Part shown: positions 3,095-25,349 of the stretch, one piece after another
Position numbering within the stretch: position 1 is the stretch's first letter
Layout of the letters: each line of letters starts with the position of its first letter
DNA from: a virus
IMG/VR virus record: IMGVR_UViG_3300045988_043612
Location: 1-37,574 of that record
Strand: one strand, 5' to 3'
Length of the DNA: 37,574 bases
The notes under the pieces: model-generated
What the model was told of the DNA's origin: nothing
The model's database searches: none
Seen by the model: only the letters and a program-made list of their open reading frames with translations
Translations under genes and position numbers: made by a program

Positions 3095-4261
3095 TCATTC
3101 TTGGTTGCGGGCTTTACCCGGTTTATACTTGGTTATCAGAAAGTCAACGGCGTAGCGGGTAGCGTCCATTGCATGGTTGTGGTCGTCTATCGCCTCTGTG
3201 GTGTCATACAAGCCCGTCATTCGGTCTAACACGTAGGAGTAGGTATCCAGTTCATCCGTGATGCCTCGGCTTCCCACAACCACGCAAATCTTCTTGAACT
3301 GCTTGATCTGTGCGATTCCCGCCATGATAGATCCTCTACCTTTGATACAGGGAATCACCCTACAACCTAATCGGCTAATCTCGGCGATACTCTTCTGCTC
3401 CGCTATATCGGCAACAGTGATCACCTTGTGAAGCCCTTTCGACTTCAGCAGGTTCGCGATATCCCAATTCAGAAGTCCCGGTGTGTATGCGATTTCTTGC
3501 AGGTACAGGACATCGCCCACGAATCCCACCTTAATGATAGCCGTAGGGTCTCCGGTGAATCCGAAGTCCATGCCGAGGCAATACTTCGCGTCTGCCGGGA
3601 AATCCTGCACCAGTTCGTATTCCGGGAATATCAGACCCTCCGTACCACCCGTTTCGCCTTCACCGAACACCCGCCACCAGTTAGCGTCGGATTTGTTGGA
3701 TTCGATTTCCTCCACCTGTTCGGGTGTCAGATACGGATTATCACGATACGTGGATACTATCTCTACCATGTTGTCACCAGTGAAGTAGTCGTGTGCCCAA
3801 AACTTCTTCACTGGATTGAAGTCTACGAACAGCATGAGACGGGTACGCACCGCCATCTGACGGAACACTTCCTTCGGGACTCTTTGCGCCTCGTTTACGA
3901 AGAGTATGTCACGTGCTGGACCGAATACCTTAGCGGAGTTCTCGCAGCCGAAAAACTCGATCTGAGACCCATTCTCCGTGGTGTAGATCATCTCGGTGTA
4001 CTGCATCCGCTTTTCCTCCCATACCCCTTCGTCCTGCAACATTCGTTTGAAGTCACGGAACATACCACGCTTCACTCCAGGCAGCGTATCGGTGACACAC
4101 GAGATAAGAAGCGGTGTCTCCGATTGAGTCGCCATCAGGTAGATCAGTTGTAGCATGCTCCACGTCTTCGAAGAACGCGTTCCGCCTCTGCTAGAGACCC
4201 CGCGAACGTTCGGGTCTACTGCTGCTGCTAACAGCTTGTCGAATACGTAGGTGGTCTTCAT
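3095..4261 (-). CDS. terL: Terminase large subunit (388 aa)
   Basis: N-terminal Walker-A-like SSRGGTRSSKT, Walker-B-like ILFVNEA, and C-terminal nuclease-type acidic motifs GMDFGFTGDPTA and DDHNHAMDATRY. Overlaps the upstream small-subunit gene by 4 nt. Confidence 0.9.
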   Translation of the reverse strand: MKTTYVFDKLLAAAVDPNVRGVSSRGGTRSSKTWSMLQLIYLMATQSETPLLISCVTDTLPGVKRGMFRDFKRMLQDEGVWEEKRMQYTEMIYTTENGSQIEFFGCENSAKVFGPARDILFVNEAQRVPKEVFRQMAVRTRLMLFVDFNPVKKFWAHDYFTGDNMVEIVSTYRDNPYLTPEQVEEIESNKSDANWWRVFGEGETGGTEGLIFPEYELVQDFPADAKYCLGMDFGFTGDPTAIIKVGFVGDVLYLQEIAYTPGLLNWDIANLLKSKGLHKVITVADIAEQKSIAEISRLGCRVIPCIKGRGSIMAGIAQIKQFKKICVVVGSRGITDELDTYSYVLDRMTGLYDTTEAIDDHNHAMDATRYAVDFLITKYKPGKARNQE

Positions 4262-4884
4262 TCGTCCTCCTTCCGGTCCTTAAGATTCTCAATCCCTTTC
4301 GCCTTCCATTCCCGCTTCTTCGCGATCCCCTTAAGCGCGTTGATGTGCCCTGCGGCTTCCGCACTGAGCACTTCCACCTTCAGAGAACCTTCCACCTTCT
4401 CGCCGCCGCTTGTCACGTCCCTGTATTCTCGCAGACCCCTCAGCTTCGAAATGTAGGAAGCGTCGAATTGCCCGACGGTCGCGGACTTGTCCATATCATC
4501 CCGAATCCATTCCCGGATGTTATCGATCTCCTGCATGAACTTCAATGATTCCAAGTCATTGAACTTCTCGTGCATCTCCTTGTACCTTTTCATCCGGTCA
4601 CCGAGATAGCTTCCGTAGGCGCCGATGAATTGCGTGAATCCGAATTCGGTCACCAGTAGCTTCATTTTCTTCGTGTATTCCCGTCCAGCCTGCATCCCTG
4701 ACTTCACATAGTCGAGAATCTCTAGGGGGTGATTCCGGCACCACTGGACGTAGATGTCGAAGACCTCCCGTAGCTGTCCCGGTTCGTCGAATAGTGGTGT
4801 CTTGCCGAAACGTGCGGTATACAGGCTCCACAGTTCATCTCCGGTGTACGGGTCATATAAGTCGTTTAATAATTTATTCGCCAT
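4258..4884 (-). CDS. terS: Putative terminase small subunit (208 aa)
   Basis: Sits immediately upstream of terL and is translationally coupled to it. It is the first gene after the 866-bp non-coding region. The helical N-terminal half is followed by a basic/acidic tail. The assignment rests mainly on position. Confidence 0.6.
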   Translation of the reverse strand: MANKLLNDLYDPYTGDELWSLYTARFGKTPLFDEPGQLREVFDIYVQWCRNHPLEILDYVKSGMQAGREYTKKMKLLVTEFGFTQFIGAYGSYLGDRMKRYKEMHEKFNDLESLKFMQEIDNIREWIRDDMDKSATVGQFDASYISKLRGLREYRDVTSGGEKVEGSLKVEVLSAEAAGHINALKGIAKKREWKAKGIENLKDRKEDE

Positions 4885-4913
4885 AATAGGTTTACGCGTG
4901 GTTAATTAAGCCA

Positions 4914-4921
4914 CAAAGGTA
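4914..4921 (-). promoter_or_regulatory. Candidate -7 box TACCTTTG (TAnnTTTG) upstream of terS
   Basis: The minus strand reads ctcctacctttgtggc about 30 nt upstream of the terS ATG (4884). No good TTTG lies at the expected -33 position. Confidence 0.4.
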
Positions 4922-4963
4922 GGAGAAACAAACGAATATTCCTAGTTCCATCGAACCGAATTA

Positions 4964-5007
4964 GGGGGGTCGCGATTCGCGAGGTCCCGCACCGAAAAGC
5001 ACCCCCC
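4964..5007. other. GC-rich nested hairpin (GGGGGGT ... ACCCCCC enclosing CGCG-att-CGCG) in an AT-rich leader
   Basis: G6 at 4964-4969 pairs with C6 at 5002-5007. An inner 4-5 bp hairpin lies at 4970-4982. No U tract follows on either strand. Confidence 0.5.
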
Positions 5008-5323
5008 ATTTCCTTGCTAGGCTAAGTAAGCATCTGATTCTCAGACACTTGCAAAAATGGCTAGATACAAGATTTTTTACTGCACCCGGTAACTGCCTAT
5101 CGTGCAGACAGTTACAACGATTTGGATAGATAGATGGGGTAGTTCCCTATAACTTAGAGAGAAAACACTGTTTGGTATACATTTTTTACTTCCTTTTCTT
5201 CCTTTTCTTCTGTTTTTTCAGTAATATTCCATCTCAAAGTCTTTGCAAAATAGCATTTTATCTATCCATTCTTAGCTAACTACCTATCAATCAACTACTT
5301 ATATAGGATAGATATAAATATAT

Positions 5324-5372
5324 GATCTATCCTAATTAATGTTAATCAACTAGAAATGAGCGATTTACACAG
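5324..5372. repeat. 49-bp module copy A1 (ATCTATCC-N5-AATGTTAATC.ACT..AAATGAGC.A.TTACA.AG)
   Basis: Hand alignment to 21727-21775 gives 38 of 49 identical positions without gaps. Confidence 0.85.
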
Positions 5373-5389
5373 GATTGTTAAAATACCTT

Positions 5390-5438
5390 CATCTATCTTA
5401 ACTGATATGAAATGACTGATTTTCAGCAAGTTACATAG
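5390..5438. repeat. 49-bp module copy A2 (diverged)
   Basis: Same length. About 32 of 49 positions are identical to 21727-21775. Both are preceded by CCTT and end in TTACATAG. Confidence 0.7.
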
Positions 5439-5670
5439 CCTTATTACCCTTTTCGCTCCCAAGTCATTCTATCCACTATTTCGTGGATTCTCATATACAA
5501 TTTATTCAAAACCTTTGGCATGCCTCCGTATTCTCCGGAACTTGAACAGTTTTGCATAGAATTGTTTTATTAAAATTTTCGCAGCCAAAAATAATTACAG
5601 GCTCAAAAAATAAGCAACCTCTTTTCTCTAGTTTTGAGAAATTCCCGAAGAAACCTCAACGTACACGGAA

Positions 5671-5712
5671 AACTGAAAACGCGAATCCAGTTTTTTAGGC
5701 TGAATCCGCGTT
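5671..5712 (-). terminator. Candidate intrinsic terminator after the 204-aa gene
   Basis: The minus strand reads AACGCG-gatt-CAG-cctaaaaaa-CTG-gatt-CGCGTT followed by TTCAGTTTTCC. The stem is interrupted by a 4x4 internal loop. Confidence 0.45.
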
Positions 5713-5751
5713 AAATGACCCCTTTCGGGCAAACACAATTTAGAAATTATC

Positions 5752-6366
5752 TTACAACATTATCGCACATTCTTTGGCTACCCTATTAAGAAATTCATCT
5801 TTCAGCAGCGGATTTCTTTCGCCATCCAAGAATACCCATGCGTCACCGTCCCATCCGAACAACGATATGCTGCCATCAGTGTAATGCCTCAACTCATAAA
5901 TCTGTGGCATTTCCGACCCTTTCGTTCTCTCCCTGCTGACGCGTAGCACCCGCTTCGTCCGTGATTCCTTCGCTGCTAGTTTTTCCTCGAACTGGGCGGC
6001 TTCGTACCGGTCTGTGGACAGACAGGCGTTCACCATCTTCTTTCTCTCTTCGCTGACGGACAGCGGGCTTCTCCGGCCAAACAGATTCTTGCAGTAGGTA
6101 TGAAACTCGATGCTGTTATCCTCTATTACATGTGCCGGGCAAAGGTATCGCGGGTTCCCCCGCTTTCGTATGTCCAGTTTCGGAACGTACCCGCGTTCCC
6201 TCACGAAGTTAAGGAACACGAATGTCCGTACATTAAATATCTTAGCGATCACCCGCGCGTCTACATAGCGGTCAGCGCTGCTACGGCTAGTGTCATTATC
6301 GTTCCGGCTACGCATCCCACGAGCATCGCCATTATTACCGAAATTATGATTGATTTCATTATCCAT
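5752..6366 (-). CDS. Putative DNA-binding protein with an HTH_17/excisionase-like motif (204 aa)
   Basis: A disordered Asn/Arg/Ser-rich N-terminus is followed by ARVIAKIFNVRTFVFLNFVRERGYVPKLDIRKRGNPRY. This fits the pattern 'helix, turn, recognition helix, G-x-hydrophobic-P, beta wing'. It is the last gene before non-coding region A. Confidence 0.5.
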   Translation of the reverse strand: MDNEINHNFGNNGDARGMRSRNDNDTSRSSADRYVDARVIAKIFNVRTFVFLNFVRERGYVPKLDIRKRGNPRYLCPAHVIEDNSIEFHTYCKNLFGRRSPLSVSEERKKMVNACLSTDRYEAAQFEEKLAAKESRTKRVLRVSRERTKGSEMPQIYELRHYTDGSISLFGWDGDAWVFLDGERNPLLKDEFLNRVAKECAIML

Positions 6367-8966: not shown

Positions 8967-9146
8967 TTAGTAGCTCAATGATATCAAGGTCATTCCGCCT
9001 TGCTCCTTCATATACTTTCTAGCCTGTTGGTATGCGGCGTTCCTAGACGTTGCATATATGCACAGACTTTCGATATCGTAATGTCCGTTAATCAATTCTC
9101 TTCTCATGGTTGCCACGAATACGGGTTTCAAAACGTTAGTTCTCAT
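8967..9146 (-). CDS. Small hypothetical protein (59 aa), just below the ORF-track cutoff
   Basis: Hand translation: MRTNVLKPVFVATMRRELINGHYDIESLCIYATSRNAAYQQARKYMKEQGGMTLISLSY. Its ATG (9146) is a similar distance from promoter-cassette copy 1 (TATATTTG box to ATG about 46 nt) as the 100-aa gene is from copy 2 (also about 46 nt). Confidence 0.6.
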   Translation of the reverse strand: MRTNVLKPVFVATMRRELINGHYDIESLCIYATSRNAAYQQARKYMKEQGGMTLISLSY

Positions 9147-9250
9147 AATCCTATGTTTTTAATTGTTACTACTTGTTTAACTTTGATGTGACAAATATAG
9201 GGCAAACTTCCGAATCTTCCAAATTTTGACAAAAGTATTAACGTTGATTA
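9147..9250 (-). promoter_or_regulatory. Promoter cassette copy 1 (-7 TATATTTG, -33 TTTG, palindrome TTTTGTCAAAA, TTAACG-N5-TTAACG)
   Basis: The minus strand reads cgttaatcaacgttaatacTTTTGTCAAAAtTTGgaagattcggaagtttgcccTATATTTGtcacatcaaagttaaacaagtagtaacaattaaa. The -7 box is at 9192-9199 and the palindrome at 9224-9234. The distal TTAAC overlaps the SNF2 stop codon. Confidence 0.75.
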
Positions 9251-10648
9251 ACGAATATACATGGAAACGATCTCTTTGATAGCATCTATTAACTTATTCT
9301 GTGTATCGGACTTCCCTTGTACGGCGGATATCACCCGCTCGTCTATTGTACCCTTAGCGCAAAGATGGTGGATGAACACGGGCTTTGTCTGTCCCTGCCG
9401 CCACAGACGGGCGTTGAACTGTTGGTATAGCTCTAGGTTCCACGTTACACCGAACCAAATGATATTGTTCCCGCCCTTCTGCAAGTTCAAGCCGTGACCC
9501 ACGGAAGCGGGGTGGGCGATGAGCACCTTTATCTTTCCGGCGTTCCAGTCACGCATGATCTGTGTGCCGTCCCCTTTCGAGTCGCCGCCTATGCGAACGG
9601 GCTTCAACTTGGCCAGGGCTTTCTCGATACGCACAGCCTCGTGGCGGAAGTTGTAGGCGATAAGGACCGGAGCACCATTAAGGGATTCCACCATCTCGCA
9701 CAGGGATTCAATCTTTGCCTCGCTTACCTGATGGATGTTACGCTCAGCGTCGTACACCGCACCGCCGGCGAATTGCAGCAGTTTGTTCGACAGTGCAGCA
9801 GCAGACAGCGCCGTGATCTCGGTTTCATCCCCATCGGCGAACATGGAATGTATCTGCTCCTTCTCGAATTCCTTGTACATAGCCGCCTCCTTCGGCGACA
9901 GCGTAACCTTGTCATATATGTAATTCACTTCCGGCATATCCAAGTAGTCAACCGCTTTCATCGAAAGAGTGATGTCGGCGATCTTATCGGATAATACTTG
10001 CTCGGTGTTCTCGCGTGGCTTGTAGTTAAATACTATCCCGCCATTCTGAGCACCCGGTTTAAAGTAGTTAGCCCGGTAGTCCGTGATAGACTTCCCTAGG
10101 CGCGCGCCACCGTCTATGACGAACATCTGTGCCCACAGGTCTATAAGACCATTAGGCGCGGGCGTACCTGTCAGACCGATAATGCGGTTGGCATGGCGGC
10201 GTATCTTCTTCATGGCTTTAAAGCGTTCAGAGGCGTGGTTCTTGAATGATGATAGTTCATCCACCACGATGCAGTCGTAAGGGACCTTAACGCCTCCGAA
10301 GTGTTCCAGTAGCCATACTAGGTTATCCCTTCCTATTGTGTAGATATCCGCGTCCGCGTGGGCTGCGGCTACTCTCTGCTTCGGCGTCCCGGCTATCACT
10401 GAGATGCGAAGGTTACGGAGGTGAGACCAGTTTTCGATTTCGTCTCCCCACGTCACTTCCGATACTCGTTTAGGCGCAACGATGAGCACCTTTGTTACTT
10501 CGAAGTACTCGATAAGATCGGCAACCGCCGTTAAGGTGGTCACCGTCTTTCCCAGTCCCATATCGAGGAATAGAGCGCATTCCGGATTATTCTTGATGTG
10601 CTCTACCCCTTGAATTTGGTATTTATGTAATTGATTCCTGTTTAGCAT
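9248..10648 (-). CDS. SNF2/DEAD-like helicase (466 aa)
   Basis: Motif I LDMGLGKTVTT, motif II VVDELSSFKN, and C-terminal helicase motifs HPASVGHGLNLQ and ARLWRQGQ. Confidence 0.9.
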   Translation of the reverse strand: MLNRNQLHKYQIQGVEHIKNNPECALFLDMGLGKTVTTLTAVADLIEYFEVTKVLIVAPKRVSEVTWGDEIENWSHLRNLRISVIAGTPKQRVAAAHADADIYTIGRDNLVWLLEHFGGVKVPYDCIVVDELSSFKNHASERFKAMKKIRRHANRIIGLTGTPAPNGLIDLWAQMFVIDGGARLGKSITDYRANYFKPGAQNGGIVFNYKPRENTEQVLSDKIADITLSMKAVDYLDMPEVNYIYDKVTLSPKEAAMYKEFEKEQIHSMFADGDETEITALSAAALSNKLLQFAGGAVYDAERNIHQVSEAKIESLCEMVESLNGAPVLIAYNFRHEAVRIEKALAKLKPVRIGGDSKGDGTQIMRDWNAGKIKVLIAHPASVGHGLNLQKGGNNIIWFGVTWNLELYQQFNARLWRQGQTKPVFIHHLCAKGTIDERVISAVQGKSDTQNKLIDAIKEIVSMYIR

Positions 10649-12987: not shown

Positions 12988-13290
12988 TTATTTAGCATTA
13001 AGAATTTGATTTGCTTTTTCTTTTCCAAAGTAATTAACCGCTTTTGCGTAGTTACTTACATGACCTTTAGAGATTTGAGGATAATTACGCATTACCCCGC
13101 TCAGCACTGACTGTATTTCTTTTTCTCCGATGTTTTTTCTTCTAGCCCAAGACAGGGTAGCTTCGTTTAAAACTCTTATCATGAACCATCTTAAGGTATA
13201 AAAGTTATCAACTTTCACATTCTCGTTGAAAAAAGAGATAACCATTTCTCTATTGCTACTTAATACGGTATTTACTTCCTCTGCGGTCAT
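12988..13290 (-). CDS. Hypothetical protein (100 aa), first gene after promoter cassette 2
   Basis: Minus-strand ORF starting directly after the conserved leader. Confidence 0.7.
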   Translation of the reverse strand: MTAEEVNTVLSSNREMVISFFNENVKVDNFYTLRWFMIRVLNEATLSWARRKNIGEKEIQSVLSGVMRNYPQISKGHVSNYAKAVNYFGKEKANQILNAK

Positions 13291-13400
13291 GGCTTTTATT
13301 ATTTAATTGTTACTACTTGTTTAACTTTGATGTGACAAATATACGGCGAATTTCCGAAACTTCCAAATTTTGACAAAAGTATTAACGTTGTTTAACGATA
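13291..13400 (-). promoter_or_regulatory. Promoter cassette copy 2
   Basis: Near-identical to copy 1 over about 95 bp. The -7 box TATATTTG is at 13336-13343 and the palindrome TTTTGTCAAAA at 13368-13378. Confidence 0.75.
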
Positions 13401-13403
13401 CAA

Positions 13404-13453
13404 TAAAAAACCACCCTAGCAGAACCTTCTCGGCGGTGCTAGGGTGGAAAAAA
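13404..13453 (-). terminator. Strong bidirectional intrinsic terminator
   Basis: A perfect 11-bp stem CCACCCTAGCA / TGCTAGGGTGG (13411-13447) is flanked by A6 on the left and A6 on the right, giving a T6 run after the hairpin on either strand. Confidence 0.85.
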
Positions 13454-13589
13454 TATGAAAAAGGCATTCGACAAAATTAGTTTCATGCCGGGAACCGCTG
13501 TCCCCCTTGTTGTATGAAGTGAACTTACATAACTAAAAGTCTTTTAAATGATTACAATTATATCTCAATGGTGATGCAAAGATAACCCT

Positions 13590-15968
13590 TTATTCGAAAT
13601 CTGCCTCACAGTCGCGCACGAATGTTGTTTGTTTCCCATAACATTTCACATACCTCTGTCCCACGGGCTTGAATCCCAACCGTTTCAGAATGTTCGACAT
13701 TTGGCGGGCACGCGCCGAATTGAAATCGGTACGCTTGTTTCCGAGGCAGTCTACCCATATCTCGAACGTGCAGAATGAATCCCTTATCTCCGTTCCTTCC
13801 GCATATACTCCGGTACGGTCTGCAAAATCCCTACGATCCGCGTAGCAGAGATCAAACCAGTCAGCCGGGAACTTCCGGTTAACGTAGTCATAGACTAAAC
13901 CTTCCATTGGGTCACGTTCGGTGTATTCTTCGCGCTTTCCCACGGCAATGGCTTCCGCTTCCGGAGATAAGATAAGCGATTCGCCTGAACGATACAGTTC
14001 CACGGCTTCCGCCCACAACTGATCCACAATCTCAGCGAATTCGTCTTCCCGTTTCGGATTCGTTATGATGTCTGCGGCGGGAGTCCATTCGACCGCCACG
14101 GGAAAGAAACGGCGGTTTCCTGTTGGGTCTTTTAGGAAGTCGTCTTGGTTCGTAGACCCGAAGAACACACATTGCCTTTTGTGTGTTTTGATGCGCTTGG
14201 CGTATGCAGCCCGATACGTATCCTCAGTCTTTGAGATGAAGTTCTTCATCACCTCGATGTCGGTTTTCTTAAGGGCGGATAGCTCAGCAAGCTCCACCAG
14301 CCACGACTTTTGGATAGCCTCGTACGCGTTTTTCCCCTCCATCGATACGAGTGAGTCATTGAACCATCCTTTAGATAGTTTCTGAATCAGCGTTGACTTT
14401 CCCGCGCCCTGCTGCGATACCATAATAAACGCCGTATCGAATTTGGTTCCCGGCCTAAACATGCGGGCAACCGCGGCAACCATCATTTTCCGGAACGCCT
14501 CGCTGACATAGATGTTATCCTCCGACCCCATATAGGTAGTCATAAATTTATCCAGTCTAGGTTCGAAATCCCATTCCAGTGAGTTAAGATAATCCTTTAT
14601 CGGATGAAATGCATTATCAAGCGCCACCTTCTCGATAACGGCGTTCATCTTGTCCTTGTTATATATTTTATGCAGCCTTTCGATACGGGTGGATATGATG
14701 GCTACGCCGGTATCGTCTAGCAGGTCGCCGCGCTTTTTAGTCTTATCGAAGTACGGTGTGCGGGTATAAACCACCACGTCTTGAAAAAGGTCGTAGGCTA
14801 TCAACTTGTTAAGCAGCGGGTCTGATTTAAACGCATTCTCAAAGTTAACCGTCGTAACGGTCTTGTTGCCTTTCGAATCTATGTCCCATTCTATTTCCTC
14901 TTCATCCGCCACCTCAGCTTTTGCCTCATCCGGAATCTCTTCGAAGTCGCTGAGGTAGTCTTCTACCTTCACCATCTCGTGTACTACGTCCTCGTCTGCT
15001 TGCATTAACTTCACCATCTCAGCCTCACTCTCCTTCTTTCCGAGATGCCCATACAGGTGAACGCGCACCAAGTCATAAGCGTTGTATGTGTGTCCGTCTC
15101 CTATCGGGTCGGTGGAATGGTGGGAATACGCAAACATGTTATCATACACTACCATCCCGGCGGCGGATGTTCCACCTTTATATGTGTAGCGGTCGTTACC
15201 TTCATCCTCGTAAACATCGGACAAGTATTTTTCAATAGCTCCCTGAATGGTGTAGACGCGGCAAAACGCACCGATCATTCCCGGTTTAGTCGTGGGGTCT
15301 GCCGAAGCCTTCACCTGTCCACGCACTTCCGCATCTTCGGAGTCAGCGAAAGCCCACAGGCGCACATCTTGCCACGCTTCACCGTCTCCGTAGAGGCTGA
15401 GAATATAGTCAACGTCCAAAGGTTCTCCCTTCTGAGTCTCAAAGTAGAAAGGTTGGTCAGACGAAAGGGTAGCCCAAAACATTAGACGTTCCGCCTGGAA
15501 TGTGGTAGTATCAAAAAGTTCGATGCCCATCACCTCGGCGACTTTACGGGAAGCGGCTTCATACTCCTCGCGCGATTTGATTTCCCTGTTTAACGGGATG
15601 GTAAGACGGTAACGGCGTTTTCCCGGTCTGTCCGAACGTGTGCCATAGATAGCAGCCGCACAATCGAACTTCATCGAGAAATCGAAGAAGAAATCGTCTG
15701 TACCGAAGTCTACGTCTAAAGTGATCAGCGAACGGGAAGTAACGGCATTCTTGGTGCGGCGACCTCCGGAAAGCGTTCCGCCTACGAAGCCACCCTTGTC
15801 TTTGCGGATAGCCTTTTCTGTCTTTGCCAGTAGGTCGTACTCCCGCGTGGTCTCGGAGTCGCGTTTAGGCGTTCCGAGAATCTCCACAAGTTCGTCCCAC
15901 GTATATGACTTCCTTTTCCAATTCGTTGAACGAGCACCACCACCTACTGAGATATTGTATTTTTCCAT
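13590..15968 (-). CDS. Bifunctional primase-polymerase (AEP) / SF3 (VirE/D5-like) helicase (792 aa)
   Basis: The N-terminal part has AEP-like motifs LITLDVDF (DxD), YSHHSTD (sxH) and AYDLVRV. The C-terminal part has a P-loop VSQQGAGKSTL and Walker-B-like WLVELAE. Confidence 0.85.
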   Translation of the reverse strand: MEKYNISVGGGARSTNWKRKSYTWDELVEILGTPKRDSETTREYDLLAKTEKAIRKDKGGFVGGTLSGGRRTKNAVTSRSLITLDVDFGTDDFFFDFSMKFDCAAAIYGTRSDRPGKRRYRLTIPLNREIKSREEYEAASRKVAEVMGIELFDTTTFQAERLMFWATLSSDQPFYFETQKGEPLDVDYILSLYGDGEAWQDVRLWAFADSEDAEVRGQVKASADPTTKPGMIGAFCRVYTIQGAIEKYLSDVYEDEGNDRYTYKGGTSAAGMVVYDNMFAYSHHSTDPIGDGHTYNAYDLVRVHLYGHLGKKESEAEMVKLMQADEDVVHEMVKVEDYLSDFEEIPDEAKAEVADEEEIEWDIDSKGNKTVTTVNFENAFKSDPLLNKLIAYDLFQDVVVYTRTPYFDKTKKRGDLLDDTGVAIISTRIERLHKIYNKDKMNAVIEKVALDNAFHPIKDYLNSLEWDFEPRLDKFMTTYMGSEDNIYVSEAFRKMMVAAVARMFRPGTKFDTAFIMVSQQGAGKSTLIQKLSKGWFNDSLVSMEGKNAYEAIQKSWLVELAELSALKKTDIEVMKNFISKTEDTYRAAYAKRIKTHKRQCVFFGSTNQDDFLKDPTGNRRFFPVAVEWTPAADIITNPKREDEFAEIVDQLWAEAVELYRSGESLILSPEAEAIAVGKREEYTERDPMEGLVYDYVNRKFPADWFDLCYADRRDFADRTGVYAEGTEIRDSFCTFEIWVDCLGNKRTDFNSARARQMSNILKRLGFKPVGQRYVKCYGKQTTFVRDCEADFE

Positions 15969-18132: not shown

Positions 18133-18705
18133 TTAGTCGAAGATTGGATCATCGTCCGCACCCGATTCATCATCGAAGTCGTCTTCCACGTTTCCTGCAC
18201 CGCCGCCTCCGAATGCCGTATCATCTTTAACTTTCTGCAAACCATTCAGACCGAATGAAATTCCCTTTCCGCCTGCGTTATCATAGACATAAGCGTCAAT
18301 CGAAGCTACCCCCCATGAACCGGAATAAATATCCTCTTTTCGTGTGATAGGCTGTTTGAACTTGTCAATCACTAGTGGAGCACCTTCTTCTTCTTTGCGG
18401 TAGGCTGAGATTTTAAAGTATCCAAATTCTTCACTGTATTTTGAATCGTCACCGTCAGCGATCGGATTCCATTTCACGCCTGACGCAGTGTTGGGATTCG
18501 GCATAACGAATCTAGGGTGCTCTGCTACGTACTCGTCTTGTAGCTCCTTGATTGTTTTACGAACCTTGTTAATCAGCTCCTTGTCGGTTTTCGGAATCAA
18601 CAAAGTAACTTCGTATCTGTTCTTTCCGGAATTGAATGCGTCTCTCGGTTCGAATACTCTTACCCATGTAAATCTCACATTCTTTAAAACTAATTTTTTT
18701 CCCAT
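18133..18705 (-). CDS. Phage SSB-like protein (DUF2815-type, 190 aa)
   Basis: The N-terminus LKNVRFTWVRVFEP is typical of this family. It has a Gly-rich linker and an acidic tail ending DDDPIFD, like SSB C-terminal tips. Its position next to the nuclease and polymerase also fits. Confidence 0.8.
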   Translation of the reverse strand: MGKKLVLKNVRFTWVRVFEPRDAFNSGKNRYEVTLLIPKTDKELINKVRKTIKELQDEYVAEHPRFVMPNPNTASGVKWNPIADGDDSKYSEEFGYFKISAYRKEEEGAPLVIDKFKQPITRKEDIYSGSWGVASIDAYVYDNAGGKGISFGLNGLQKVKDDTAFGGGGAGNVEDDFDDESGADDDPIFD

Positions 18706-18813
18706 AATCGTAAATTTTTAAATTTGTTGTTATTACTGTTTCTTTAAGACTCTGCAAATATATGACTACTTTCTGAAACTTCCAAATTTTGACAAAAGTC
18801 TTAACATTGATTA
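18706..18813 (-). promoter_or_regulatory. Promoter cassette copy 3 (core conserved, leader diverged)
   Basis: The -7 box TATATTTG is at 18755-18762, the palindrome TTTTGTCAAAA at 18787-18797, and TTAACATTGATTAAC overlaps the stop of the nuclease gene. Confidence 0.7.
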
Positions 18814-19992
18814 ACCTTCTATATCGAAGTCGCTTGCAGTATCCCGCTCGTATTCCTTTCCGGGATGGCTGTCCGGGACTAGTTTAGGCGCTCCGGGCTG
18901 AGATTTCACATACTCGCCTATCTCAGCAGCGAATACTTTCTTTCCCATTAGCTTTTCCAGGTCCGTGATACCTTTCAGTGAGATGTTCAGTACTTCGTCC
19001 TCTAGGTAGGTATTTAGGAGCTTGTCACGCACTTTATCCGGGTCAATGATCTTCCGGGCACTTCGTCCTTCAACTAACTTGTAACCGTCCCATTTCTTGC
19101 CCTTCATGGCTTCGGTGTAGGCGTATTGGTTGATGGATTCAAGCCACGACTTGTATCTGTCGATCTTGCCGATCATCTCAACTATTTCCTCATCCGTCAT
19201 TATCAGCGTATCGGGGTGATCTTCGAAGTCTTTGATAATCTCGTTCTTCTGCGCCCGGCAAGTCGCTTTAACGGGACAAAACTGACACCACGATCCCACT
19301 ACCTGCTCACCCTTTCCTTCGTAGGCTAGCTTAGCTTTCGGTCTTAACACTTTCTCAGCCCAATCGAGTAAATCCCTTGCATCCATCTCGATTGTCTCAA
19401 AATGCTTCAATCTAGGCTGCGCTACGGACATTCGAATACGCTTCACCTTTGGGCCGCCGAACTTGGCTAATACCCCTAAAGCGTACATTTTGAACTGCGG
19501 GCTTTCCGCCGGGACCTTTACACCTTTTCCGTACTTTAGGTCAATGATGTGCACTATGTGTTCGGATATTAAGGAAACGTCAGCGCTTCCGAAAGATTCA
19601 GGTGCGTATTTGGAGATGTCCAACTTTTCCTCTAGGTACGTAGCGACCGAACCACCGAAAGGTCCTTTTTGCATCTCATAAAATTCGCCTGTCACAAAAT
19701 TAACGTAGTGGCTGATAGCCTCCTTCATTTCCTCGGAATAGTACTTGTTTGAGGCGATATTCTCCGGAACGGGTAATTCATCGCATTCGGGGTAGAACGT
19801 TCCGTATATCCAACTTTTCAATGCGTATTCAGCCAATTCGTGGGCTGTTGTGCCTTCTTCCGCGTATTCGCTCGTCTTGCTTCCTGCTGCGTCGGCCAGG
19901 CGGGCAGACGGCGTGCAATTAAGCCATCTTTCAGAAGAGGAAGGGGACAGTATCGCGTGTCCCCTTTCTGAATGGTTTATTACTTTTTGCAT
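18811..19992 (-). CDS. PD-(D/E)XK nuclease, DUF2800/Cas4-like (393 aa)
   Basis: N-terminal HAILSPSSSERWLNCTPS, catalytic-type IIDLKYGKG, and a C-terminal Cys cluster CQFCPVKATC. Confidence 0.85.
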   Translation of the reverse strand: MQKVINHSERGHAILSPSSSERWLNCTPSARLADAAGSKTSEYAEEGTTAHELAEYALKSWIYGTFYPECDELPVPENIASNKYYSEEMKEAISHYVNFVTGEFYEMQKGPFGGSVATYLEEKLDISKYAPESFGSADVSLISEHIVHIIDLKYGKGVKVPAESPQFKMYALGVLAKFGGPKVKRIRMSVAQPRLKHFETIEMDARDLLDWAEKVLRPKAKLAYEGKGEQVVGSWCQFCPVKATCRAQKNEIIKDFEDHPDTLIMTDEEIVEMIGKIDRYKSWLESINQYAYTEAMKGKKWDGYKLVEGRSARKIIDPDKVRDKLLNTYLEDEVLNISLKGITDLEKLMGKKVFAAEIGEYVKSQPGAPKLVPDSHPGKEYERDTASDFDIEG

Positions 19993-20727: not shown

Positions 20728-20916
20728 TTACTGTTTTTGATATGTTAAACACTTGTTAATAACTTCGTTTTCGTCTACGCGAATCTTCCCCTGTTGGTTC
20801 TTGTATTCGCTTATGTAACCTTGCCGTATCTTGTAACGGACGGCGTTCTCGGTCAAGCCCATTAGGTGGGCTGCTTCGCTGATTCGTATCAGCTTTGGTT
20901 CTAAATTTCCAGTCAT
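20728..20916 (-). CDS. HTH_17 / excisionase-MerR-like DNA-binding protein (62 aa)
   Basis: LIRISEAAHLMGLTENAVRYKIRQGYISEYKNQQGKIRV fits the winged-HTH pattern of the AlpA/excisionase family. Confidence 0.75.
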   Translation of the reverse strand: MTGNLEPKLIRISEAAHLMGLTENAVRYKIRQGYISEYKNQQGKIRVDENEVINKCLTYQKQ

Positions 20917-20917
20917 A

Positions 20918-21247
20918 TTAAAAATTTTTAGATTTGTGAAACGTACTCAAAAAATCTTTGTACGCCATCTCAACCGCTCCGGCGAATATTGACCTGTACC
21001 GCTCGGCTGTCGGGTAGATGAACTCGCGAATTTTAAATTCAAACTCTTCTCCGCAGTCCTCTAGCGCTAGCTTCTCACGAAACAGTTCCTCAGTTGTCAG
21101 GCGGAGCGGTGAACTAAACAGGTTATACACGTCTGTTGCCTTTAGCTGCGTATTGATATGCAAGCGGGCTTCTTCGTAGTAGAACCGTTCAAGCGCACAA
21201 AGATTAATTTTCTTCTCTCTCATTGCTTCTCGGTTTAATCGTCTCAA
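20918..21247 (-). CDS. Hypothetical protein; start uncertain (TTG at 21247 in the track, first ATG at 21223)
   Basis: This is the first gene downstream of non-coding region B. The frame stays open to 21337 without any ATG. Confidence 0.6.
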   Translation of the reverse strand: MRRLNREAMREKKINLCALERFYYEEARLHINTQLKATDVYNLFSSPLRLTTEELFREKLALEDCGEEFEFKIREFIYPTAERYRSIFAGAVEMAYKDFLSTFHKSKNF

Positions 21248-21323
21248 TCCGTAGGCTGCTCGTATCAGACCTTTCTTGCCGTCTAGGAGGTCGGCGGCAC
21301 GTTTGATTCGTAATTCGATGTTG

Positions 21324-21331
21324 CAAAGATA
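21324..21331 (-). promoter_or_regulatory. Candidate early promoter -7 box TATCTTTG
   Basis: The minus strand reads attaTTGcagattcaaataaaagccgTATCTTTGcaac. A TTG lies 19 nt upstream. Confidence 0.45.
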
Positions 21332-21417
21332 CGGCTTTTATTTGAATCTGCAATAATTTAGGCAAAAGATTTATGGGGATTAACGTTTATTAGTGAATCG
21401 AATGTAAAAATGGGCTT

Positions 21418-21783
21418 GGATAGATGGAATCCCACGTAACTTGCTGAGTATCAGGGGTGATTTTTGAAAGTGGATAGTTTAAAATCTGTTAAATCACTTG
21501 TAAGTTGCTGCAAACCAGTGAGTTAGCTAAAAAGTGGATAGATAGATAGGTGGTTCTCTATAAGTATGGAGGAAAGTGTGTGTTGCGATTGATAAATTAT
21601 AATTACACCCTTATAATACACTACTAAGATTTTCTCCATGTATTATAGTGAAACATCTATCCATCTATCTATATTAAGCTAAATAGCTATAAATGAGACG
21701 ATTCCATGTGAAAGTTAAAAACCCTTCATCTATCCAACAGAATGTTAATCTACTGTAAATGAGCAACTTACATAGATAGATAC
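21418..21783. repeat. Iteron field B: direct-orientation boxes on the left arm, inverted boxes on the right arm, AT-rich palindromic core
   Basis: Left arm: GGATAGATGG 21418-21427, GGATAGTT 21472-21479, GGATAGATAGATAGG 21536-21550. Right arm: ATCTATCCATCTATCTAT 21655-21672, ATCTATCC 21728-21735. Nested inverted repeat 21556-21571 / 21634-21648. AATTATAATT at 21595-21604. Box 2: GTAACTTGCTGA 21436-21447 and GTAAGTTGCTG 21500-21510. Box 3: CTGAGTATCAG 21444-21454. Confidence 0.85.
21727..21775. repeat. 49-bp module copy B1
   Basis: 38 of 49 positions identical to 5324-5372 by hand alignment. Confidence 0.85.
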
Positions 21784-21828
21784 TTGGATACATGAAAGGT
21801 TTGTTAACATGAATTGCTATCTCAGAGA

Positions 21829-24857: not shown

Positions 24858-25349
24858 TTATCCTAATTCTGCTAATTCCTCGTCTACCGACTTTTCCGGA
24901 TTTTCAACTGGTGCTTCCGGTTCCGGATTTTCAACGGGTGCCTCCGGTTCCGGTTCCGGTTCCGGTTCAGGTTCCGGCGATTCCGGTATCGTGGTAGGTT
25001 CATCCTCTACGCCGATAGGTCCGAGATCATCGAAGTAAGGAATGTAATCGGGATTCTCGCGCATGATTCGTTCCGCAACTTCATCGGTGCAGTTGAATGC
25101 ACGATAAACTACGCCGTCCGCCACGTGATTGATTGACATTCCCGGCTTCATCACGTAACGAACGTGAACGCCTGTAAGGTAGTGGCTTTCGTACCATTTC
25201 TTCGCGAATGCGCGGTCCATGTGGCACGTAGGATCTAATTTCAGATGGGTGATACTCTTGCAGAGATTCAAGATCTCCACTTCGTCTGTGAGCATTACAA
25301 GCTGTCTGCCCACCGGTTCTGCTATTTTAGCTGCTTTCTGTCTAGCCAT
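24858..25349 (-). CDS. Hypothetical protein (163 aa) with a C-terminal (EP)n / EAPVENPEP repeat tail
   Basis: C-terminus PESPEPEPEPEPEPEAPVENPEPEAPVENPEKS, encoded by the tandem DNA repeats at 24896-24979. Confidence 0.75.
   Translation of the reverse strand: MARQKAAKIAEPVGRQLVMLTDEVEILNLCKSITHLKLDPTCHMDRAFAKKWYESHYLTGVHVRYVMKPGMSINHVADGVVYRAFNCTDEVAERIMRENPDYIPYFDDLGPIGVEDEPTTIPESPEPEPEPEPEPEAPVENPEPEAPVENPEKSVDEELAELG
24896..24979. repeat. Tandem repeats: 27-bp unit x2 (24896-24922, 24923-24949), then CCGGTT hexamer x4 perfect plus 2 imperfect (24944-24979)
   Basis: Read directly from the sequence. Confidence 0.9.

Follow-up and report, generated by a model that had tools for sequence, protein, structure and literature searches.

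In phage P4, octamer iterons are present at two separate places, ori and crr, which are both needed in cis and are bound by the alpha protein. In phages of lactic acid bacteria, the origins (the ori of c2 and the phage-encoded resistance, or 'PER', sequences of Sfi21 and phi31) are AT-rich non-coding repeats located at a module boundary near promoters, and these phages encode a primase-helicase resembling P4 alpha or VirE. The domains of P4 alpha are arranged in the order primase, superfamily 3 (SF3) helicase and C-terminal winged helix (PMC2777425), and Rep of the staphylococcal pathogenicity islands (SaPIs) is a self-loading initiator helicase whose winged helix binds iterons that flank an AT-rich centre in opposed orientation, no fewer than two per side (PMC9371898). 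Here, a comparable non-coding region is described in IMG/VR record IMGVR_UViG_3300045988_043612, the whole of which (positions 1 to 37,574; hereafter the window) represents an ARB25-like Bacteroides thetaiotaomicron phage of 37.6 kb. This region, named region A (4885-5751), is a composite control region whose core (approximately 5058-5438) is an iteron array, in which opposed copies of the box GGATAGAT flank the most easily melted DNA of the genome, and the array layout is repeated 16 kb away in region B (21248-21828). The best single reading, to which a probability of about 0.45 may be assigned, is that the two regions form a duplicated replication origin of the P4 ori/crr type.

All genes of the window are carried by the minus strand. 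Region A is flanked by a gene for a 204-aa protein (5752-6366) and by terS (4258-4884, phrog_606), which is followed by terL, encoding a PBSX-like terminase (Terminase_3/3C). At 867 bp it is the largest gap of the genome (region B measures 605 bp), its GC content falls to 0.31, and its longest open reading frame (ORF) has at most 48 aa, in agreement with a preliminary description of the window that had called it the largest non-coding and ORF-free stretch. According to the map of a fully annotated relative, BF1-8, region A separates the last early gene from terS, and region B separates the last late/lysis gene from the first early genes, which encode a 101-aa protein, a 62-aa helix-turn-helix (HTH) protein, a DUF2800 exonuclease, an Enc34-type single-stranded DNA-binding protein, PolA and the primase-helicase. 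A 1.2-kb query comprising region A and its flanks matched 56 phage records at 70-92% identity, all of them from Bacteroides phages, and the non-coding region itself was matched by 49 of these; in all related records inspected it is unannotated or mis-annotated. A literature search covering ARB25-type regulatory regions, the OP1727xx phages and the box sequence returned nothing relevant to region A.

The box GGATAGAT occurs eight times in the 37.6-kb genome against 1.18 copies expected, a count reached in 0 of 100 shuffles, with four copies in region A, four in region B and none elsewhere, and a genome-wide scan for k-mer clusters found A and B to be the only non-coding iteron arrays. The 7-mer GATAGAT has 16 matches (5.7 expected), 12 of which are in A or B, and CTGANNNTCAG occurs three times (0.42 expected), at 5034 and 5416 in A and at 21444 in B. 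On the left side of region A, the boxes at 5124 and 5128 are in plus orientation and form the tandem element GGATAGATAGATGG (5124-5137, plus strand), i.e., two overlapping GATAGAT copies, which is followed by GGTAGTTCCCTATAA and is homologous to B 21535-21563. Beyond the AT-rich spacer (5138-5259), boxes are found at 5260 (minus), 5306 (plus), 5325 (minus) and 5391 (minus), the right flank being mostly, not uniformly, in minus orientation. This flank belongs to a conserved core (5260-5438) of three units of about 65-66 bp, each of which begins with ATCTATC[CT] (5260, 5325 and 5391). When the window was aligned with 27 related Bacteroides phage sequences (28 in total), the core showed a conservation of 0.90-1.00, equal to or higher than that of the flanking coding DNA, so that the comparison with relatives called for in the preliminary description found this block to be as well kept as the neighboring genes. 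None of the 28 sequences deviates in the boxes at 5260-5267 and 5325-5333, and ATCTATCT at 5391 is degenerate in the ARB25 clade. The two 49-bp modules already described are genuine (31 of 49 positions identical versus a mean of 13 for random pairs within region A, p ~1e-4) and are part of the 65-66-bp periodicity, which had been overlooked together with the terminator (5670-5712), the -7 box (4914-4921) and the 22-bp repeat (4938-4959) discussed below.

All motif positions given in the preliminary description proved to be exact, including GGATAGATAGATGG, ATCTATCC (5260-5267), ATCTATCT (5391-5398), CTATCCACT (5469-5477), the CTGA-N3-TCAG palindromes (5034-5044 and 5416-5426), and a tight inverted pair composed of AGGATAGAT (5305-5313) and ATCTATCCT (5325-5333) separated by ATAAATATATG. 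This pair, AGGATAGAT-N11-ATCTATCCT (5305-5333), is a candidate site for two oppositely oriented protein subunits; its right arm is invariant, its left arm has a conservation of 0.94 and the 11-bp spacer one of 0.69, and equivalents are present in phage BT2 (GCATAGAT, with a 22-nt gap) and in the distantly related phages of group 5 (TGTAAAAGAT-N10-ATCTTTTACA).

In region B, the boxes at 21418 and 21536/21540 are in plus orientation and are followed by a 107-bp AT-rich spacer and by minus-oriented boxes at 21655/21663 and 21728. Over 113 bp, segment 5260-5372 of A is colinear with 21663-21775 of B (69% identity, E = 6.5e-16); another alignment, displaced by one unit, was also found, and the left-hand boxes of the two regions are 87% identical over 30 bp. 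The earlier statement that the regions share box families and have parallel architecture is thus borne out and strengthened, and A and B are paralogous. Additional modules are common to both. The module AATGTTAATCAAC...AAATGAGCGATTTACACAG, which contains the motif GTTAATCAAC (5334-5372, plus strand), is also present in B at 21737-21775, and AAATGAGCNANTTACA is found at 5354 and 21757 only. With up to one mismatch, GTTAATCAAC has 11 matches versus 3.0 expected, including A, B and sites upstream of three middle promoters. Another module, CTGATTTTCAGCAAGTTAC (5416-5434, plus strand), has a degenerate copy at 5034-5053 and a reverse-complement copy in B (21436-21454); TCAGCAAGTTAC is exact at 5423 (plus) and 21436 (minus), which gives one copy per region, inverted in B. 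As a separate observation, the aligned segments of A and B constitute direct repeats, and the genome also codes for an exonuclease and an annealing protein; recombination between A and B would remove a whole module, and there are unusually short related records (BT401P1, 30.6 kb; BT401P2, 32.3 kb).

The box sequence changes considerably among related phages, with GGATAGAT, GGATAGGT, GCATAGAT, GCATTGAT and TAAAAGAT as variants across the family, and the change generally affects both regions. Regions A and B of BT2 are unalignable with those of the window, yet they are 89% identical to each other over 133 bp, and the BT2 box GCATAGAT is present in 12 copies, six per region and none elsewhere (1.29 expected). 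In BT16 and an IMG/VR relative (L004), GGATAGGT stands beside GGATAGAT in both regions. Among the eight IMG/VR contigs that cover both regions, five have the same variant or mix of variants in A and B (ATCTATGC, or ATCAATGC plus ATCTATGC) and one (_054174) has GGATAGGT-type boxes in both, whereas in two contigs of group 2 (3300023504_000019 and _038078) the top 8-mers differ, being of GGATAGG type in A and ATCTATCC in B, a difference that stays within the GGATAG[AG]T family. Group-5 phages, whose TerS and TerL are only 39% and 57% identical to those of the window, were missed by terS-based and SNF2-based locus searches and were found by a DNA-pattern scan. Their box, TAAAAGAT, is unrelated and forms exactly two clusters, located upstream of terS and upstream of the early genes, in which box positions and orientations superimpose over approximately 370 bp (loci L210, L215, L222, L228, L232, L233 and L237). 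In some distant relatives, which have a winged helix of the ..MRQLGGW.. type, the boxes are degenerate at the same positions. The layout of tandem boxes, 105-136 bp of AT-rich DNA, boxes in opposite orientation and a tight inverted pair is found in every lineage. As the boxes co-vary in A and B, a phage-encoded, sequence-specific reader is required, and the core, in common with region B, is very probably a binding-site array for a phage-encoded protein.

Several properties of the arrays point to replication as the process served by this protein. The AT-rich spacer between the opposed boxes (5138-5259) is a candidate DNA-unwinding element, within which lies a tract (5181-5222; 88% pyrimidine) whose length varies through TTTCTTCC units. 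Based on nearest-neighbor free energy, the least stable segments of the genome are 5147-5347 at a length of 200 bp and 5257-5357 at a length of 100 bp, and the A and B spacers are its two least stable 200-bp segments. A SaPI-like origin would be expected to have 6-12 short iterons, no fewer than two per side of an AT-rich centre and in opposed orientation. The boxes of A and B agree with this, and the same opposed arrangement is observed in BT2 and group 5; because this layout matches the published rule for SaPI origins, it supports the origin reading. Moreover, the window encodes a fused primase-helicase of 792 aa (13590-15968) that matches SaPI1 Rep (PDB 7pds) with a phmmer E-value of 5e-71. 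The AlphaFold model of its residues 371-792 (predicted local distance difference test score 92) ends in a beta-alpha-alpha-alpha-beta-beta winged helix, and comparison of this C-terminal half with 7pds by Foldseek gave template modelling scores of 0.77-0.82 over about 440 columns, the C-terminal winged helix included; an SF3 Rep helicase with a C-terminal winged helix, as expected for a SaPI-like origin, is therefore encoded. An origin-like reading is strengthened by the opposed boxes around AT-rich DNA, the lowest duplex stability and the presence of this SaPI-Rep-type helicase. We propose that the phage's own primase-helicase, which is homologous to SaPI PriRep, reads the boxes through its C-terminal winged helix, and that A and B might act either as a duplicated origin or as an origin and its cis-acting partner, as in P4 ori/crr.

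The identity of the reader was also approached by comparing the winged helix with the HTH protein encoded next to region B. Groups 3 and 4 have the same HTH recognition helix and differ in the winged-helix recognition helix and in the box mix. In group 5, the winged-helix type (..MRQMKGW.. versus ..MRQ[LI]GGW..) separates loci with 4-9 identical boxes from those with two or fewer, whereas the type of the HTH gene fails to do so, although this gene adjoins region B. These data provide a suggestive hint, at the level of sequence, that the winged helix rather than the HTH protein tracks the boxes.

On the other side, a number of points weigh against a duplicated origin. The winged-helix/box correlation comes from few independent lineages and is confounded by phylogeny. 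The arrays are not located directly downstream of the rep homologue, where a SaPI origin would be expected, but 5.3 kb (B) and 7.8 kb (A) away from the primase-helicase gene, downstream of which (13291-13589) a terminator hairpin and a promoter module, and no repeats, were found. Each array precedes the first gene of one of the two large transcription units, a place where an operator or enhancer-like site would also be expected, and some transcriptional role is indicated because GTTAATCAAC is common to the three middle promoters. Low duplex stability is general in intergenic DNA, and the GC skew is monotonic without an origin signature, being dominated by one-strand coding. Both the initiation of replication at A and B and the binding of the primase-helicase are put forward as proposals.

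When compared with the described systems, an iteron-type control or origin region is a known class; what sets this one apart is that it is duplicated, with a copy at each of the two module boundaries, that the copies evolve in concert and that the box sequence turns over rapidly. The likeness to SaPI origins includes a homologous initiator (SF3 helicase plus C-terminal winged helix, with a primase fusion as in SaPI5), opposed short iterons around an AT-rich centre, and an iteron sequence that differs between elements and matches the cognate element (PMC9371898). In contrast, the SaPI origin is single and directly downstream of rep, whereas in this virulent Bacteroides phage two arrays are located 5-8 kb from the gene, one at the early and one at the late module boundary. 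In addition, SaPI iterons are 5-6-mers, and the boxes described here are 8-mers accompanied by extra common modules (GTTAATC and CTGAnnnTCAG-CAAGTTAC). The phage primase-helicase has the same domain order as P4 alpha (PMC2777425), and the two loci with the same co-varying box would parallel ori and crr of P4 if this one protein reads both; however, some 4.5 kb separate the P4 sites, which do not form long paralogous segments, and P4 alpha has a helicase of D5/P4 type, in contrast to the VapE/Rep type found here. The origins of the lactic acid bacteria phages have no sequence relation to A and B and, unlike these, are experimentally defined and single-copy.

The main rival explanation, possible but more doubtful, is that A and B are operator or enhancer arrays for a phage regulator (e.g., the 101-aa protein together with the 62-aa HTH_17/MerR-like protein), which would act where the early unit (at B) and the late unit (at A) begin, possibly by looping, and would time expression. 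Promoters of the Bacteroides type were sought by a scan for TAnnTTTG, which replaced an E. coli-type promoter and terminator scan that showed no enrichment and is unsuited to Bacteroides. A -7 box of this type, TACCTTTG (4914-4921, minus strand), is located 30 nt upstream of the terS ATG and is invariant, TAnnTTTG being present in 20 of the 20 aligned sequences that cover the position (the window included). No TTTG was found at -33 of this promoter, which probably drives late (packaging and structural) transcription from the -7 element only and, because the -33 element is missing, is probably activator-dependent; it is thus a candidate for an activator-dependent late promoter. In region B, a near-consensus early promoter, TATCTTTG, is present at 21324-21331. 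Three perfect TTTG-N20-TATATTTG promoters occur elsewhere (9199, 13343 and 18762). They belong to repeated modules of about 100 bp on the minus strand (9140-9260, 13285-13405 and 18700-18820), each of which is preceded by GTTAATCAACGTTAATAC and has an ATG about 45-50 nt downstream, and which are probably middle-gene promoters. As an aside, a perfect 11-bp hairpin (CCACCCTAGCA/TGCTAGGGTGG) with a T-run at 13411-13447 (minus strand), on the downstream side of the primase-helicase gene, probably acts as a terminator, and a middle promoter directly follows it.

The operator reading would account for the position of A and B exactly at two module boundaries, each upstream of a -7 box (4914-4921 and 21324-21331), for the HTH gene being the second gene downstream of B, for the presence of GTTAATCAAC in A, B and the three middle promoters, and for a late promoter that without its -33 element would probably need an activator. 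The co-variation of box and lineage suits any phage-encoded reader, including a regulator. Likeness to the OL and OR operators of phage lambda can also be recognized, in that two separated clusters of one short site stand at the heads of transcription units and the site sequence co-evolves with the phage's own DNA-binding protein. However, lambda operators overlap promoters, whereas the conserved boxes here are 90-400 bp upstream, surround an unwinding-prone spacer and have no overlap with the core promoter, the nearest conserved box being about 90 bp (B) or about 140 bp (A) from the -7 box. No repressor or lysogeny module is evident in the window, unlike in lambda. Moreover, the early and late units bear the same array in the same orientation and geometry, an arrangement that would be unexpected if the two were under opposite temporal control. 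The recognition helix of the HTH protein hardly varies (TENAVRYKIRQGY versus TENAVRYRVKQGY) although the box does, and groups 3 and 4, with their different box mixes, have it in identical form. An arrangement of opposed tandem boxes on either side of the least stable DNA is instead typical of origins. Beside this, it was observed that the 101-aa protein and the 62-aa HTH_17/MerR-like protein, encoded by the first two early genes (20728-21223, minus strand), are adjacent in the window and fused into a single 166-aa protein in BT2 (L031, 2289-2789), which suggests that the two proteins work together.

Origin and operator roles are not mutually exclusive. It is conceivable, albeit unlikely in this full form, that A and B are two coupled copies of one replication-and-transcription hub of about 120-370 bp, kept alike by gene conversion, which would represent a two-site origin doubling as the temporal switch of a virulent phage with fast iteron diversification in gut Bacteroides phages.

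Packaging offers another explanation for part of region A, the position of which directly upstream of terS fits; the preliminary description had already noted that the region could contain the packaging (pac/cos) site. According to this reading, TerS would recognize repeats upstream of the gene that encodes it and start headful packaging there, the candidate sequences being the 22-bp repeat and the GC palindrome (4938-5007) and not the GGATAGAT core. The terS-proximal 150 bp constitute a separate module with a GC-rich palindrome, a variable 22-bp repeat and the -7-only promoter. The GC-rich island (4964-5007) contains the palindrome TCGCGATTCGCGA (4970-4982), has 1-3 additional GGGTC repeats in relatives and retains a conserved core, GGGGTCGCGATTCGC; RNAalifold found only a 3-bp stem and no compensatory changes in it, and it is probably a protein-binding site. 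The 22-23-bp unit ATTCCTAGTTCCATCGAACCGA (4938-4959) is present in a single copy in the window and forms a variable-number tandem repeat in relatives, with two copies in L001, L015, L016 and L020, approximately four in L014 and 6-7 in BT638P3 (6.0 copies with a period of 23 according to Tandem Repeats Finder). Its alleles TAGTTCCATCGAAC and TAAACCTTGCGTAC sometimes occur together in one array. The unit adjoins the promoter at the position expected for the -33 element and is a candidate for either an activator site or a TerS (pac) site.

A pac site would be in accordance with variable-copy repeats that adjoin terS and with a TerL of the Terminase_3 (PBSX-like) family. A published PhageTerm analysis of the cluster detected neither direct terminal repeats nor cohesive ends, and such a lack of defined termini fits headful packaging (10.1101/2020.03.04.977157). 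However, a pac site would not need the second copy of the core array, which lies at B at a great distance from terS; the 22-bp unit occupies a place where a promoter-proximal activator site is also expected; and single arrays can contain both sequence alleles of this unit. As an account of region A, packaging is improbable, and only the GC island and the repeats close to terS are plausible candidates for such a function. The common end point of the MT0741xx records in region A was considered as a physical terminus and rejected, as their authors report that no termini were detected. With regard to the terminase genes, a set of IMG/VR loci (L121-L152) with a terL 77% identical to that of the window and an unrelated terS had no box arrays upstream and belongs to a different phage type, a pattern which suggests that the terminase module has been exchanged between otherwise different phages.

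It is very improbable that region A holds a gene for a non-coding RNA, a decayed protein gene or a small one. ARB25, BF1-8, HNL05 and other records annotate hypothetical proteins here (71-aa plus-strand and 52-aa minus-strand ORFs), and the plus-strand frame from 5356 has the lowest ratio of nonsynonymous to synonymous polymorphism (pN/pS) of the six frames, at 0.34-0.52; terS and the gene of the 204-aa protein, taken from the same alignment, nevertheless have values of 0.04-0.18, which also speaks against the decayed gene that the preliminary description had named as an alternative. The 71-aa frame is cut in the window by TGA at codon 20 (5412-5414), a codon that is TGA in several relatives as well, TGG or CGA in others and TCA, TCG or TCT in the ARB25 clade. 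A second stop is found near codon 46 in nearly all sequences of the window's clade (in the window itself the frame stays open after the TGA until a TAG near 5556), clades differ in frame because of a 10-nt indel, and the matching ATGAGC module in region B stops after six codons. This frame is judged from its sequence to be neither a conserved nor a decayed gene, and the minus-strand ORF is broken in most relatives. As for RNA, no Rfam family was detected at the gathering threshold, only chance-level snoRNA matches being obtained up to E = 10; a tRNA scan of region A was negative, and RNAalifold found no covariation in the core or the GC element.

The proposal that the boxes recruit or titrate Bacteroides DnaA is hardly credible: the boxes are similar to TTATCCACA, and some of them can be extended to AGTGGATAG, a 7/9 match to the DnaA box (5469-5477, 21469-21477 and 21533-21541), as the preliminary description had noted for the first of these, but that site (CTATCCACT) is not conserved and lies inside a 10-nt indel missing from the ARB25 clade, and host DnaA is excluded as the reader because phages of the same host species differ in their box, those of B. 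thetaiotaomicron having GCATAGAT, GCATTGAT or TAAAAGAT at the same positions.

In the laboratory, interactions between phages and Bacteroides of the human gut are studied mainly with ARB25-like phages, and the literature search revealed no published description of their origin, promoters or packaging site, while their records leave region A blank or fill it with spurious small ORFs. The present analysis provides testable sequences, including the paired iteron arrays and their likely reader, the early terminator and the late promoter, which could be of use for replicating or packageable vectors, for origin-titration (PER-type) resistance and for phage engineering. The two-array signature should also help to recognize such phages among metagenomic genomes, and the coordinated change of the box at two sites, in five variants, offers a clean natural example of co-evolution in protein-DNA specificity.

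The remaining parts of region A are of more local significance. To the left of the tandem boxes, an inverted repeat, GTAACTG-N13-CAGTTAC (5089-5115), has conserved arms and a variable spacer in the alignment, and a degenerate box, GGCTAGATAC (5058-5067, plus strand), is replaced by an intact AAAGTGGATAGAT at the same place in most relatives. To the right of the core, a variable spacer (5439-5669) has a mean majority fraction of 0.75-0.76 and many indels, and no feature in it is kept across clades. The distal 80 bp of the region form the terminator of the early operon: an intrinsic terminator (5670-5712, minus strand), consisting of a hairpin (5678-5712) and then a T-tract, is located just downstream of the 204-aa gene. 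In 22 relatives, RNAalifold gave a 13-bp stem of -18.6 kcal/mol followed by TTTT(C/T)AGTTT, and two pairs of the stem are kept by changes on both sides, these being the sole compensatory pairs found in region A. For the neighboring 204-aa and 247-aa proteins, sequence searches of PDB, Pfam and PHROGs gave no function. Finally, outside the two regions, a tandem GGAACCGGAACC repeat is present at 24915-24981, within the coding sequence of a 163-aa ORF (24858-25349).

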